Sequence record: OL960581
DNA length: 64,000 bases
Direction: 5' to 3' (one strand)
DNA from: Escherichia phage vB_EcoM_SA20RB
Under the pieces are notes generated by a model. That model was not told where the DNA came from and searched no databases. It saw only the letters and a program-made list of their open reading frames with translations. Both the position numbers and the translations under genes were made by a program. This document shows, one piece after another, positions 13,716 to 19,225 of this stretch (the first letter of the stretch is position 1; each line of letters begins with the position of its first letter).

Positions 13716-13958
13716 TTATTCCTTAATTCCTAGTACTTGTTTAAAAGTCTCGTCGTAATCAAGACTTTGACCCGTTTGTTCTTTATGTTTGTATATAATA
13801 TCACTTACTTCTGATAGCATATTTTTATATGAACGAGTTAAAGCAGATTTAAGCACGCTGTATCTATCAGGAAATTTACCGTGTTCATTATAATACGCTA
13901 TTGCTAATTCACGGACTGCCTTTTCAGCAATCTCCATATATTCTTTACGCTTGGTCAT
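13716..13958 (-). CDS. Hypothetical protein (nrdC.1 position)
   Basis: ORF-track 80 aa. Confidence 0.5.
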
Positions 13959-14262
13959 TTTCTTCTCGGTTAAATCGGTGTTTACAATGACGACATTTAT
14001 AACGAAGATTACTAGTCTGCCAATGAATTAATTGAACCTGTTCAGTACCACATTTTGGACAGTTCGGAACATTCTTAGAAACCCTTTCGCGGCGTTCAAC
14101 CATAACCATAATGGCATCCCAGGCTGGAGGTTTAAAATCTAAATCATCACAACCATGAATCTTTCCACGCATTTCCAGATCGTCTTCTTCACCAGCCATA
14201 ATAATTTTAATTAGACTGGAATTACTTGAAGCTGCAATATCTTCTAATAGACGCTTTTTCAT
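13945..14262 (-). CDS. Zinc-ribbon-like hypothetical protein (nrdC.2 position)
   Basis: 105 aa; CPKC...CRHC four-Cys arrangement. Confidence 0.5.
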
Positions 14263-15188
14263 TTCAATACCTCAATAGCATTACGTAAACCATTTGCTTT
14301 TGCATTAAGAGCTTTTAACAATTTAGTGTGTTCGGCAATTTGGGCTTCAACTTCAATCAAACGAGCATTGAGATATTCGCGTTCTTCGCTCAAGCTATCA
14401 ACCTTTTCTACTTTAGGTTCTTTTACAACTGGCTTATATGTATTAGGGTTCTTCAGTTTAATTAGAATACGTGAACTGTATAACATTGAACCATTATTTT
14501 CGATTTCGTCATACATTTCTACTACGTCCATGATTTTTAACATCATGCGGAGTTTATAAGATAACGAACGAATAGTTTTGTTGTGCTTATTAATTTCTCT
14601 AGCTGTCATGGTGCCGAGATTACGTGAGTAATAATAAGGAACCTGGATATTAATTAACACTGATGAACCACCTGGCTTGTGTGTTACTTCATCAGCAATA
14701 ACCCAGTCCTTAACATGAACTGTATTTGTACGGTCATCACCAGCGGTAAATAGTTTGCGAGCATGCTTAAAAAGCATATTCACTTGGTCATTGAACTGAC
14801 AAGCAAATTTATCAGCAAATTTAGTTTCAGGAATGGTAGATAACCAATCAGCCAAATGAGTCTTTTTAACATCGTTAACAATAGTAAATTCAACCAAATC
14901 GGTTATAGATGTCGCAGATTTAATGAAGCTTGGCTTCATAAAGTTTTTAATGTTATCGCGAGCTACAGTAGAAGATAACATACGAGAACGTTTAAACCAT
15001 TCAAGCAAATTGCCTAACGAATGAGAATAAGCGTTTTGAGTATCTTTACAGATATGATTTTCCTGACCAACATATTGAAGGAAATCACGAAGAATATTAT
15101 TGATTACTGCTCTGTGTCCAATCTGATAACTACGGTGTTTAGTAATAAGACTGTCAAAATAATCAATATAATGTTTACGAGTTTTCAT
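14259..15188 (-). CDS. Paralog family member A with C-terminal coiled coil (nrdC.3 position)
   Basis: 309 aa; heptad-like C-terminus; shares the F..(A/S)(R/K)(K/L)L..G(D/S)D block with the next three ORFs. Confidence 0.6.
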   Translation of the reverse strand: MKTRKHYIDYFDSLITKHRSYQIGHRAVINNILRDFLQYVGQENHICKDTQNAYSHSLGNLLEWFKRSRMLSSTVARDNIKNFMKPSFIKSATSITDLVEFTIVNDVKKTHLADWLSTIPETKFADKFACQFNDQVNMLFKHARKLFTAGDDRTNTVHVKDWVIADEVTHKPGGSSVLINIQVPYYYSRNLGTMTAREINKHNKTIRSLSYKLRMMLKIMDVVEMYDEIENNGSMLYSSRILIKLKNPNTYKPVVKEPKVEKVDSLSEEREYLNARLIEVEAQIAEHTKLLKALNAKANGLRNAIEVLK

Positions 15189-15240
15189 GTTCTTCTCACT
15201 TGGTTAATGATTTATACTCCGAGCCATCCTTGGCTTTAAA

Positions 15241-16242
15241 TTACTTAATTAACTGTAAAGCTTGTTCAAGACGATCCAGGCGATTAACAGATTCTTCCCA
15301 AATCCTTTTAGCCTGCTCATATTCTTTCTGCGCTTTATTAGAAATTTCTAGAGCTTCTTTATAAGCTTTTTCTAGTGCAATAACTTCTGGACGAATTTCT
15401 ACAGGTTCAGGCGAATCATCAAGATTATCCATTAGTTCCTCAAGTGTAATTTCTTCTTTAGGAGTATTCACAATTTCATCACATTTTTGTTGGTAAATTT
15501 CTTTATCAGTCGGTGAGTACGCACATTTCACTTCACGAAGACTAACTACAATTTTATATCCTTCCCAACCACACATATTTTTGAAAGGATATGTATGAAT
15601 ATTTTCTACTGTTTCCATACAAAGTAATGCGGTTTCTAATTGACGAGTTATAGTGCTAGCAATTGAGAAAAATTTATTAATGTTCTTTTGGTTAGTTTCT
15701 GGTGTAAAAAATCCATAATTCACAAAAATAGATACTTTATTTTTATCAAGTTCATATTCTTTTATGATAATCATATCAGAAGCCAAAGGATGAATTTGAC
15801 GATAATCGCCATAACATAATTTAGAAGCTGATTTTAGAAGTTGCTTCTTGAAAAGTCTGAAATTACTAATCCAACGACGAGTAAAAATATTCTCAGGGTC
15901 TTCTTTATTATTAAGATGATAAGAATTAACATCACCGAACCAATTATATCCTACTACATCTTTGGTTCGTTTAATTTCTTTCCCAAAATTACCAAGAATA
16001 TCCCGATTAACCAAATATGAAAGAAGACGAGACTCTTTAAAGGTTTTCTTGATAACATCTTTATCTACACGGCTAGAAATTTTACGAATTTCATGAATAA
16101 ATTTAACAGAAGAAACAATACTTGCGTCAACACTATTGAGCCATTGATTGATAATAGAAATAACGCTATTTTGACCAAACATCGGTATAGCTTTATCATC
16201 AATAACACTATTGAATGATTTGATATATTCGTTACGAGTCAT
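15241..16242 (-). CDS. Paralog family member B with C-terminal coiled coil (nrdC.4 position)
   Basis: ORF 15241..16293; start moved to ATG 16242 (MTRNEYIK) because the early promoter at 16271-16300 lies inside the longer ORF and GAGGAG precedes this ATG. Confidence 0.6.
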   Translation of the reverse strand: MTRNEYIKSFNSVIDDKAIPMFGQNSVISIINQWLNSVDASIVSSVKFIHEIRKISSRVDKDVIKKTFKESRLLSYLVNRDILGNFGKEIKRTKDVVGYNWFGDVNSYHLNNKEDPENIFTRRWISNFRLFKKQLLKSASKLCYGDYRQIHPLASDMIIIKEYELDKNKVSIFVNYGFFTPETNQKNINKFFSIASTITRQLETALLCMETVENIHTYPFKNMCGWEGYKIVVSLREVKCAYSPTDKEIYQQKCDEIVNTPKEEITLEELMDNLDDSPEPVEIRPEVIALEKAYKEALEISNKAQKEYEQAKRIWEESVNRLDRLEQALQLIK

Positions 16243-16270
16243 ATTAATCTCCTCAGTAGAAAGTAAGAAC

Positions 16271-16300
16271 ATTATACCACATCCTTGTGGCAAAGTAAAC
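16271..16300 (-). promoter_or_regulatory. T4-type early promoter (-35 GTTTAC, -10 TATAAT)
   Basis: Minus strand reads GTTTACtttgccacaaggatgtggTATAAT. Confidence 0.6.
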
Positions 16301-17328
16301 TAGTTCAGTGCATTTAGTGCATTGTTCAGTTTAGAACGTTGCTTCGTGAGATTTTTGACTTTTTCTTGAGCTTTTTCTAGCATCTTTTCAGCTTCTAACA
16401 CTTCATTAGTTGCTTTAACGAGTTCATCATCTACTGCCTTGATAGACTTCTCAATCGCATCCGCGTGCCATTTTTCAACAGGTTTAAGACTCGGATTTTC
16501 AACAGGAAGAAAATTCGCTTTATTGAATTTCCATGCATCCTTATTACCTGAACTATACATCCAAAATTTAGGATCGTTTGATGAGTAATTGGATAAATTT
16601 AAATTTAAGTTATCTTGCACTTCTTGCTTTTTCTCTTGCGTGACTTCGTCCTTTCTCAAAAAATCGTATTTAAATGAAATGATCATATCAAGTTCATATG
16701 TTGTTGTGTCTAATTTAAATCGTTCGAAATGCTGTGAAATCTTAGACTGAACAGCAGCAACAACGTCCATATACTTAAATGCTTCTGTCAACTGTGATTT
16801 AAGGCATTCGCAAATTGAAAGAGAATTTTTTGTATTAGGTTTAAAGCTAATTCGTGCAGTTCTGTTATTTTCTTTTAATGGTCTTACTTCCATCTGAAGA
16901 GTATAACCATCAAATTTCAGATTCTTTAAGTTAATATCAGAACCTTTTAATCGACTCGCAGTTGATAAAATTTGCTTTAATTGTCTACGGAACAGAGCAA
17001 TAAATCTCCATTCAATACGATAATGATTTGGATTGAAAAATCCAGATGATAAATCGACCTTACTTTGACCAACGCCTTGAACAAATAGAGGATTTTTATA
17101 ATCGATAGTTTTACAGAAATCGGTGAGCTGCTCACGAGCCGTCATTTGTGTAATATAACCCGCTTTACTAAAATTACGCACCCATTCACTGCTATTCGTA
17201 TACTTAAAGTGATGAATAACACGATTAACTTTATCAGGGTCTAAATTATTTTCACACAAAAATGTCATAACATCACGAGTATAACTGGCATTACGAACCA
17301 TATCTTCAATTTGAGAACGAGTTTTCAT
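16300..17328 (-). CDS. Paralog family member C with C-terminal coiled coil (nrdC.5 position)
   Basis: 342 aa; EWRFIALFRRQLKQILSTASRLKGSD parallels RRWISNFRLFKKQLLKSASKLCYGD in member B. Confidence 0.6.
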   Translation of the reverse strand: MKTRSQIEDMVRNASYTRDVMTFLCENNLDPDKVNRVIHHFKYTNSSEWVRNFSKAGYITQMTAREQLTDFCKTIDYKNPLFVQGVGQSKVDLSSGFFNPNHYRIEWRFIALFRRQLKQILSTASRLKGSDINLKNLKFDGYTLQMEVRPLKENNRTARISFKPNTKNSLSICECLKSQLTEAFKYMDVVAAVQSKISQHFERFKLDTTTYELDMIISFKYDFLRKDEVTQEKKQEVQDNLNLNLSNYSSNDPKFWMYSSGNKDAWKFNKANFLPVENPSLKPVEKWHADAIEKSIKAVDDELVKATNEVLEAEKMLEKAQEKVKNLTKQRSKLNNALNALN

Positions 17329-17336
17329 GGTATTCC

Positions 17337-18263
17337 TTAAGATTTAAGTAAATCAACAATTTTAATTAACTTTTCACGCTCAGATTTAGCTTTACTACTC
17401 AATCCAGATAGTCTGAAAATTTCATCGTCATATTGTTGAATAGAAATATTCAGCTCTTCAATCTGCTTATTAAAATAATCAATTTGTTCAGAATGTTTTT
17501 CGTTACTACGAACTGGTACAGGTTTTGTAGGCAATTTAGTTGAACTGGATTCATCCGGACGATAAATTAAAATACAACTTGAACCAATAGGGCATTTTGC
17601 ACCAGATGAATATTCTAATGTTCCAGCTTCTTTTAAAACTTCAAAAGCTAAACAGAGATGATGCCCCATATTAACATAATCTGTAGAGTGAGCTCTGATA
17701 TAATAATCATCTCCACGAATACTAAATTTAAAGCATTTAAGGTCTTCTGTATTATTGGTCTTAAAAATCATTTGTTTATCTAGACCTTTAGCTAATCGAG
17801 CGCCTAATGCTAATAATCGTCGTTGATTTTCCCACAAATCTGCAATCATTTGGTCAAATGATAACTTCGGCATTAGTCGACCATAAAGGTCATATCCTTT
17901 ATTGTAATTACGAAGGATTTCACTCGCATTAATACGAGACAACGCTCCAATTTTATTAAGGGCTTTCATAATGCGATTAGATAAACTCATTCCAGACCCG
18001 TTTGTTCGCTGTAAATGTTTTTCTAATCCAAATCCAATATCAACTTTAAACTTATCTAAAATTTCAGCATGAACATCTCTGTCGATAACATTCAAATCCA
18101 AAGTTGGGTTAAATCTATGAAAAAATTTATCTGGCTCTCCACGGCGAAGTACAGTCCATTCATTCATCATTTTTTTATTAACTAAAGATTTAATTACTGC
18201 ATTGACATTATTAATTACTACTGACATATTTTCCTCACTCAATTTCAATTTTACTAAATACAC
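17337..18263 (-). CDS. Paralog family member D with C-terminal coiled coil (nrdC.6 position)
   Basis: 308 aa; ADLWENQRRLLALGARLAKGLD block and coiled-coil tail. Confidence 0.6.
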   Translation of the reverse strand: MYLVKLKLSEENMSVVINNVNAVIKSLVNKKMMNEWTVLRRGEPDKFFHRFNPTLDLNVIDRDVHAEILDKFKVDIGFGLEKHLQRTNGSGMSLSNRIMKALNKIGALSRINASEILRNYNKGYDLYGRLMPKLSFDQMIADLWENQRRLLALGARLAKGLDKQMIFKTNNTEDLKCFKFSIRGDDYYIRAHSTDYVNMGHHLCLAFEVLKEAGTLEYSSGAKCPIGSSCILIYRPDESSSTKLPTKPVPVRSNEKHSEQIDYFNKQIEELNISIQQYDDEIFRLSGLSSKAKSEREKLIKIVDLLKS

Positions 18264-18642: not shown

Positions 18643-18672
18643 AATAATCTCAATTAAAAGGGCTTAGAACCA

Positions 18673-18700
18673 TTATACCATCCTTGGTATAAAGCGGTTA
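18673..18700 (-). promoter_or_regulatory. Possible early promoter with extended -10 (TGgTATAAT), weak -35
   Basis: Minus strand reads ...ggatggTATAATgg upstream of the ORF starting at 18642. Confidence 0.35.
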
Positions 18701-19225
18701 TGCGAGTACCGTCTTTAACCGTTCTTCAAACTTCCGAAGAGTATTTTGGCGTTCAGCTCTTTGCTTTTTGTAAGTTTCAATACGCTCTGAAATGAGAGTG
18801 TATCGTTCATTTACTGATTCTTTCATAAAATCAGGAATTTCACGAGAAGCTTTAATCTCGTCAAATTTATCAATAACAGCTTGCTCTTCAGCAATTAAGT
18901 TATCATACATTAAAATATCTTTCTTGATGAACTCAATATCTTCTTGAGTTACACGAGATAATTTAGATGCTTTATCCTTTTTGTACTGTTCGTTAGTATC
19001 ACGAGACCAGTGCAATGTACGATTTTTATTCGTATTTTTGTAAATTTCTACAATACCGATCTCATCAATAATAACGATCCAATTCCAACGGGATTTGTAA
19101 ATTTGTCCTCCATCAACAGTGATTTCACCTCCGATTGAGATGTCGTTAAAGAACTTGCTTTGTGCTTCAGATTTAAATTTACCATCGTTGTAATTTACCA
19201 AGTTGAAAATATCTTTAGCGTTCAT
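18698..19225 (-). CDS. Hypothetical protein
   Basis: ORF-track 175 aa; preceded by an early promoter and GGAGGA SD. Confidence 0.6.
   Translation of the reverse strand: MNAKDIFNLVNYNDGKFKSEAQSKFFNDISIGGEITVDGGQIYKSRWNWIVIIDEIGIVEIYKNTNKNRTLHWSRDTNEQYKKDKASKLSRVTQEDIEFIKKDILMYDNLIAEEQAVIDKFDEIKASREIPDFMKESVNERYTLISERIETYKKQRAERQNTLRKFEERLKTVLA

Follow-up and report, generated by a model that had tools for sequence, protein, structure and literature searches.

A clone of bacteriophage T4 that had acquired a large deletion in an evolution experiment could no longer plate on ECOR17, and T4 nrdC.5, described as an early gene, restored plating of the deletion mutant on Dsr1 cells when supplied alone from a plasmid (Srikant, Guegler and Laub, eLife 2022, PMC9391042). 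The TPR sensor of Escherichia coli Dsr1, which is shared with Avs7, is reported to be triggered by the phage major capsid protein (2026 preprint). DSAD1 of SPbeta-like Bacillus phages blocks the SIR2-type NADase DSR2, reportedly by binding. Among the T4 internal proteins, IPI defeats GmrSD and IPIII defeats an ECOR17 system (PMC9391042). Here we analysed a stretch of 64,000 nucleotides (the window) from Escherichia phage vB_EcoM_SA20RB (sequence record OL960581), a T4-like phage of the genus Tequatrovirus, in which four consecutive minus-strand open reading frames (ORFs) are the counterparts of T4 nrdC.3, nrdC.4, nrdC.5 and nrdC.6. On balance, we favour the reading that this array consists of four anciently duplicated, early, non-enzymatic genes, found in T4-like phages only and most likely acting in counter-defence.

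The first-pass annotation of this DNA had reported four consecutive minus-strand ORFs, and all four were found at the coordinates it gave:

17337 to 18227, minus strand: nrdC.6 orthologue, 296 amino acids, the most divergent paralogue, 94.5% identical to T4 NrdC.6
16300 to 17328, minus strand: nrdC.5 orthologue, 342 amino acids, 95.6% identical to T4 NrdC.5 over 340 amino acids
15241 to 16242, minus strand: nrdC.4 orthologue, 333 amino acids, the hub of the superfamily, 96.1% identical to T4 NrdC.4
14259 to 15188, minus strand: nrdC.3 orthologue, 309 amino acids, a divergent allele, 61.9% identical to T4 NrdC.3

The starts of nrdC.4 and nrdC.6 had been taken too far upstream. We place them, as the most likely choice, at ATG 16242 (with a GAGGAG Shine-Dalgarno sequence) rather than TTG 16293, and at ATG 18227 rather than GTG 18263, because the family alignments and PHROG profiles begin at these inner codons and Shine-Dalgarno sequences accompany them. 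The 4-kb array region matched 656 phage records, nearly all from Escherichia/Shigella Tequatrovirus, with a top identity of 97%. Endonuclease VII and the NrdC thioredoxin are among the flanking ORFs, the order around nrdC.5 (nrdC.6 and nrdC.4 on its flanks) is that of T4 and T6, and the early accessory-region setting proposed for the array was upheld. In the annotated T4 and T6 records the same ORFs are named nrdC.3 to nrdC.6, each with the product "hypothetical protein"; since they are known T4 genes, the array is not a new kind of element. Many GenBank Tequatrovirus records label nrdC.3-nrdC.6 and their neighbours "thioredoxin". No thioredoxin family of Pfam or NCBIfam matched any of the four, and the nrdC.x locus names are the apparent source of the label.

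The window nrdC.5 lies in the same place as its T4 orthologue and matched PF23882 (DUF7235) over the full length of the model (420.7 bits against a cut-off of 30, E = 5e-126, positions 1-307 of 307). Given the published phenotype of T4 nrdC.5 and the 95.6% identity of the two proteins, the window nrdC.5 is very probably an anti-Dsr1 gene. The anti-defence role that had been proposed for the whole array is thus backed by published complementation in T4 for nrdC.5, and for nrdC.3, nrdC.4 and nrdC.6 it may follow from their homology to nrdC.5, dispensability, variable copy number and the allele swapping of nrdC.3. The array is dispensable in the laboratory, as seen in evolved T4 deletions and in T4_583L, from which nrdC.3 is absent; a natural nrdC.5::nrdC.3 fusion (P0056) also occurs. 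A literature search on DUF7235 and Dsr1/ECOR17 returned nothing beyond the eLife 2022 paper for nrdC.5, and no function was found in the literature for nrdC.3, nrdC.4 or nrdC.6. The four ORFs are named T4 genes with a reported phenotype for nrdC.5 only, and confident homology to a well-characterised T4 family did not emerge.

The other three window ORFs did not match PF23882 at E <= 1; they lie outside that Pfam family and are kin of NrdC.5 only at superfamily level. DSAD1 is a functional analogue, likened here by its description only: it too is a phage protein without enzymatic motifs that is directed against a SIR2-type NADase defence. However, its target is DSR2, which is triggered by a tail tube protein, and it comes from another phage lineage; we do not claim membership. 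IPI, IPII and IPIII likewise form a small multi-copy accessory family of T-even phages with one shared module and variable bodies. Their module is an N-terminal capsid-targeting one and they are injected with the DNA, whereas nrdC.3-nrdC.6 have the body and a C-terminal heptad helix in common, and their genes carry early-promoter motifs; the comparison implies no homology.

The paralogues might instead serve host takeover or gene expression by binding nucleic acid or RNA polymerase together with NrdC.2, in which case the Dsr1 phenotype of nrdC.5 would be indirect. The gene concerned adjoins the array:

13945 to 14262, minus strand: nrdC.2, 105 amino acids, zinc ribbon, joined by an AAATGA overlap to the 3'-most family member

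The C-terminal CxxC…CxxC pattern of nrdC.2 (~70-105 amino acids) and the AAATGA start/stop overlap were kept in 9 of 9 phages from 7 genera, a coupling that lends this alternative some weight; the zinc-ribbon profile matches themselves were weak. Residues 30-86 of nrdC.3 (window 14934-15099) also showed a weak match to the XerD/phage-integrase N-terminal SAM-like domain (E 0.0016-0.06). This match lies far below curated cut-offs, as all such similarities lie below significance thresholds, and probably reflects mere shared helical character. Moreover, plasmid-borne nrdC.5 rescues plating on Dsr1 cells by itself, and both dispensability in the laboratory host and copy-number variation are atypical of a core takeover function. 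We regard a takeover role as unlikely, though deserving of consideration.

Several points nevertheless count against the counter-defence reading. Diverged paralogues may differ wholly in function. The functional evidence concerns nrdC.5 only and comes from one complementation experiment, in another phage and without a mechanism. The conserved coupling to zinc-ribbon nrdC.2 could hint at a role related to nucleic acids. As detailed below, nrdC.6 is linked to the superfamily by profile-profile scores and bridging sequences and has no direct pairwise similarity to the other members, and the structural model of nrdC.4 was built on an alignment that presupposes homology.

In BLASTP and phmmer comparisons among the four proteins, nrdC.3 and nrdC.4 were the sole pair detected (BLASTP E = 3e-7, 25% identity over 275 amino acids); nrdC.5 and nrdC.6 had no significant pairwise match. 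Pfam and PHROGs place the four in three separate families. The first is nrdC.5 (PF23882, phrog_2351). The second is nrdC.3 with nrdC.4, which matched phrog_1435 over the full length (E = 1.4e-116 and 1.1e-167, respectively) and constitute PF26897, for which every nrdC.4 homologue carries a precomputed match. The third is nrdC.6 (phrog_2257, matched over the full length, E = 1.5e-152), every homologue of which carries a precomputed match to PF26899. Taken by themselves, these results would fit the view that only nrdC.3 and nrdC.4 are true paralogues and that the likeness of nrdC.5 and nrdC.6 reflects convergence or compositional bias in helix-rich proteins ending in coiled coils.

Homologues were gathered for each family and the resulting profiles were compared by hhalign, with column shuffles, a reversed profile and deletion of the coiled coil as controls. 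The first comparisons, with shallow alignments, gave probabilities of 26%, 13% and 0.4%. nrdC.5 compared with nrdC.3/4 reached a probability of 93-96% (E 4e-7 to 7e-9) and a score of 68, against a maximum of 22 in 40 column shuffles and 17 for the reversed profile; the probability was 94% after removal of the last 65 amino acids. Direct comparison of nrdC.6 with nrdC.5 or nrdC.3/4 was weak (E 0.02-0.04), which again would suit convergence. Against the merged nrdC.3/4/5 profile, nrdC.6 scored 41.9 (E = 4.5e-5); shuffles gave 13.7 +/- 2.1 and never exceeded 18.5, and the reversed profile reached 23.

Single-copy proteins from other phages bridge the families: Kanagawavirus CIP9_194 and PEi20_089, Marfavirus gp080 and Pectobacterium PM2_092. 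CIP9_194 matched the hidden Markov models of nrdC.6 (8e-10), nrdC.5 (2e-11) and nrdC.3/4 (1e-5). These bridging proteins, which come from Tevenvirinae of the genera Kanagawavirus, Marfavirus and Mosugukvirus, were compared as one family:

bridging family against nrdC.6: hhalign 95%, E 2.6e-8; 85% with the last 65 amino acids removed
bridging family against nrdC.5: hhalign 98%, E 3e-12; 66% with the last 65 amino acids removed
bridging family against nrdC.3/4: hhalign 96%, E 6e-9; 94% with the last 65 amino acids removed

Since the links survive removal of the last 65 amino acids, the coiled coil is not the source of the superfamily signal. The alignments are colinear through motif 1, the central block, a beta-hairpin/helix region and a C-terminal helix ending in L-x-x-L-K/N, and the genes are syntenic across genera, both of which speak against convergence. 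We asked whether the neighbouring nrdC.8 (18698-19225, 175 amino acids) might be a shortened fifth member that had kept the C-terminal helix, and dismissed this because its hhalign scores were only 12-20. Its charged C-terminal helix superficially resembles the family tail and the protein is also helix-rich, so that it serves as a natural negative control. Together, the profile links, the bridging proteins and the coil-deleted and nrdC.8 controls indicate, at the level of sequence profiles, that nrdC.3, nrdC.4, nrdC.5 and nrdC.6 are one superfamily that was anciently duplicated. The higher AlphaFold2 confidence obtained on the merged alignment and the full-length Foldseek matches, both given below, also favour a single superfamily. 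The paralogy asserted in the first-pass annotation is therefore borne out by profile-profile scores above those of shuffles and by the bridging proteins, and in pairwise alignment for nrdC.3 and nrdC.4 only. Convergence is already largely refuted, and we consider it very improbable.

The four proteins probably have a common anatomy: an N-terminal helical part with an S-R-x-L-S…A-R-D…F-G-K motif, a central block, an alpha/beta part, a variable linker and a C-terminal heptad helix. The conserved segments are as follows:

17778 to 17843, minus strand: central block of nrdC.6, ADLWENQRRLLALGARLAKGLD, nearly invariant in the nrdC.6 family and aligned with the blocks of the other members
16936 to 17013, minus strand: central block of nrdC.5, EWRFIALFRRQLKQILSTASRLKGSD, from alignments, coordinates verified
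15805 to 15879, minus strand: central block of nrdC.4, RRWISNFRLFKKQLLKSASKLCYGD, within helices 116-142 of the AlphaFold2 model
14733 to 14795, minus strand: central block of nrdC.3, FNDQVNMLFKHARKLFTAGDD, from alignments, coordinates verified
17898 to 17960, minus strand: conserved motif 1 of nrdC.6, LNKIGALSRINASEILRNYNK, from alignments
17110 to 17172, minus strand: conserved motif 1 of nrdC.5, FSKAGYITQMTAREQLTDFCK, from alignments
15979 to 16041, minus strand: conserved motif 1 of nrdC.4, FKESRLLSYLVNRDILGNFGK, from alignments
14934 to 14996, minus strand: conserved motif 1 of nrdC.3, FKRSRMLSSTVARDNIKNFMK, from alignments
17340 to 17498, minus strand: C-terminal heptad segment of nrdC.6, a/d occupancy 0.79 (p 0.001), highly conserved in the nrdC.6 family
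16306 to 16482, minus strand: C-terminal long helix of nrdC.5, residues 283-341, predicted local distance difference test (pLDDT) 73-90, a/d occupancy 0.93 (p < 0.0005)
15247 to 15390, minus strand: C-terminal long helix of nrdC.4, residues 285-332, predicted by AlphaFold2, a/d occupancy 0.71 (p 0.02)
14262 to 14408, minus strand: C-terminal heptad segment of nrdC.3, a/d occupancy 0.86 (p 0.0005)

The shared central block noted earlier was confirmed: the four blocks align with one another and their coordinates were verified. The N-terminal halves, which had been called diverged, are not wholly so, and a second conserved motif (FKESRLLSYLVNRDILGNFGK and its equivalents) lies at residues ~53-110. 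The heptad-like C-terminal segment is present in all four, with a/d occupancies of 71-93% (p <= 0.02), where occupancy is the share of hydrophobic residues at a/d positions in the best heptad register over the last 49 residues and p is calculated against shuffles. AlphaFold2 predicted single C-terminal helices of 48 residues in nrdC.4 and 59 residues in nrdC.5, and coiled-coil peptides were matched weakly in a PDB profile search. The heptad helix is consistent with a coiled coil and probably mediates oligomerisation.

The AlphaFold2 model of nrdC.4, computed on the merged 41-sequence alignment, had a pLDDT of 83 and a predicted template modelling score (pTM) of 0.67. It consists of a helical bundle (residues 1-84) with motif 1 (FKESRLLSYLVNRDILGNFGK) at its end, a three-stranded sheet (88-110), two helices carrying the central block (116-142), strands and a long helix (158-235), a low-confidence linker and the single 48-residue helix. 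The model of nrdC.5, built on its own 8-sequence alignment, had a pLDDT of 45 and was confident only in the C-terminal helix; in this low-confidence model the secondary-structure elements follow the same order as in nrdC.4. Across the 41 sequences the start methionine alone was invariant, and only L83, A205, P280 and L332 were near-invariant. That the near-invariant positions are a few hydrophobic residues and one proline argues against an enzyme. The earlier statement that no catalytic motif is recognisable held up, as no polar residue is conserved across the superfamily. Close orthologues vary most at residues ~21-60 and ~180-280 rather than throughout the N-terminal half, while residues 61-180 and the C-terminal helix are conserved; judging from this pattern, specificity may be located in the two variable regions.

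Pfam, NCBIfam and PADLOC gave no significant match for the four proteins beyond the family's own DUF model. A sequence search of the PDB found no real relative: nrdC.5 brought up caspase noise, and the merged profile matched designed helical repeats. Foldseek comparison of the nrdC.4 model with the PDB yielded nothing below E 0.02 and no convincing solved structure. Because the alpha/beta part resembles tail-terminator and tail-completion proteins, the proteins might be virion or assembly components. We consider this idea scarcely credible: the genes can be deleted, they belong to the nrdC-mobD region, which is early, leftward and non-essential, and they follow early-promoter motifs, while T4 encodes its tail terminator and completion proteins elsewhere.

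Two elements in the spacers of the array resemble early promoters of the promoter-early stem-loop (PeSL) kind:

16271 to 16299, minus strand: PeSL-type early promoter, TTTACT-N17-TATAAT with a TG-extended -10, in the gap between nrdC.5 and nrdC.4
15211 to 15240, minus strand: weaker PeSL-like element, TTTAAA-N18-TATAAA with a GCCA-AGGA-TGGC hairpin, in the gap between nrdC.4 and nrdC.3; its motif falls below the scan threshold

The former fits the PST/T4 PeSL consensus TTTACW-N17-TAYWAT (Comeau et al. 2014, PMC4122927) and is kept in 8 of 8 Tequatrovirus loci, T4 included. Its spacer contains a CCACA-AGGA-TGTGG hairpin with a predicted stem of 7 bp. It had been described as an internal early promoter. 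The motif is indeed conserved, but it sits within the 57 nt that separate the stop codon of nrdC.5 from the true start of nrdC.4 and is internal only to the over-long ORF. From this position it would drive nrdC.4 and, probably, nrdC.3. The minus-strand spacers upstream of nrdC.3 (15211-15240) and nrdC.7 (18672-18695) contain hairpins with the AAGGATGG core of the nrdC.4 PeSL beside -10-like boxes. Duplication of the genes may thus have included the promoter cassette.

With at most one mismatch allowed, TTTACW-N17-TAYWAT occurs 29 times in the window, where 9.9 +/- 3.2 occurrences would be expected; nearly all of the 29 are on the minus strand, mainly at 1-41000. The sign of the GC skew changes near 42 kb, as would fit a switch of transcription direction there. 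The element at 16271-16299 is like the PeSL cassettes of the hyperplastic regions of T4-like phages (Arbiol 2010; Comeau 2014) in consensus, spacer stem-loop and placement between accessory ORFs. The nrdC.3 allele swap would be compatible with PeSL-mediated shuffling of the nrdC paralogues.

Phages of the different Tevenvirinae genera carry between 1 and 4 members of the family:

Tequatrovirus: four members, nrdC.6, nrdC.5, nrdC.4 and nrdC.3
Dhakavirus and Gaprivervirus: three members, nrdC.6, a distant nrdC.5 and nrdC.4
Mosigvirus: three members, nrdC.6-like, nrdC.5-like and nrdC.3-like
Marfavirus, Kanagawavirus and Mosugukvirus: one member

nrdC.3 is ~62% identical to its T4 counterpart, against 88-100% for the genes around it, and the window allele is closer to that of Mosigvirus (about 77%) than to that of T4. 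Database matches to nrdC.3 form two main classes, one at 90-99% and one at 60-80% identity, a mosaic that suggests recombinational replacement of alleles. In protein P0056, which comes from a 167-kb phage contig, nrdC.5 (from residue 147) is joined in frame to nrdC.3 (from the central block), and nrdC.4 is deleted; parts of the array are therefore lost in the wild.

Counterparts of nrdC.2 with the overlap and the CxxC…CxxC pattern were found in eight further loci:

L023, 6424 to 6738; L003, 5887 to 6198; L004, 5972 to 6265; L005, 5844 to 6149
L020, 5945 to 6169; L021, 5741 to 6028; L022, 5744 to 6031; L024, 4669 to 4881

This conservation suggests that the 3'-most family gene and nrdC.2 form a translationally coupled pair. 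The ancestral unit was probably one family gene with nrdC.2, and NrdC.2 is a possible partner of the family proteins. In Marfavirus and Kanagawavirus phages, a well-conserved protein of ~256 amino acids is encoded on the strand of the single family member, ~0.7-1 kb upstream of it (L020, 3269-4042; L021, 3238-4008; L022, 3661-4431). The 256- and 140-amino-acid neighbour proteins of these phages were examined as candidates and are not family members.

The nrdC.3/4 profile, searched against 1.84 billion proteins, recovered ten clusters at 50% identity, including the Marfavirus bridging protein P0234, and no cellular relatives. A scan of IMG/VR gave 14 loci only, from three genera. By sequence, the family profile reaches T4-like phages of Klebsiella, Enterobacter, Edwardsiella and Pectobacterium. 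Against predicted viral structures, Foldseek returned full-length matches (E 1e-8 to 1e-4) to uncharacterised T4-like phage proteins of ~300-370 amino acids, whose hosts include Acinetobacter (Acj61, with two consecutive accessions, and Acj9), Pectobacterium, Enterobacter, Erwinia, Serratia and Klebsiella; the reach by predicted fold thus extends to T4-like phages of Acinetobacter, Erwinia and Serratia.

In the reading that we favour, the array would be transcribed with the early leftward units, an additional PeSL-type early promoter lies before nrdC.4, and the last gene would be translationally coupled to nrdC.2. The nrdC.5 copy would neutralise the host Dsr1 NADase, as shown for T4 and as expected here from the identity of the two proteins. 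By analogy with DSAD1 and DSR2, NrdC.5 made early would most likely act by binding Dsr1 ahead of its reported trigger, the late major capsid protein. nrdC.3, nrdC.4 and nrdC.6 would act likewise on other host sensors or on Dsr1-like variants. A more specific version, which we put forward as quite doubtful, is that the paralogues are diversified early blockers of the TPR sensor domain of Dsr1, Avs7 and their relatives, each tuned to a different sensor variant and perhaps acting, together with NrdC.2, as homo- or hetero-oligomers formed through the conserved C-terminal helix. If this were true, copy number and allele swapping in Tequatrovirus would directly reflect which sensors the E. coli hosts possess.

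Measured against Pfam, PHROGs and the literature open to searching, the apparent novelty is the unification of nrdC.3-nrdC.6 with the anti-Dsr1 protein, across T4-like phages and coupled to nrdC.2. It reveals no new kind of system; it yields a family profile for T4-like phages and draws attention to NrdC.2 as a partner that the family proteins may have. Although no phage has been studied better than T4, its nrdC.3, nrdC.4 and nrdC.6 are still "hypothetical". Placed in one superfamily with nrdC.5, they become three concrete and cheaply testable candidates for new counter-defence functions.

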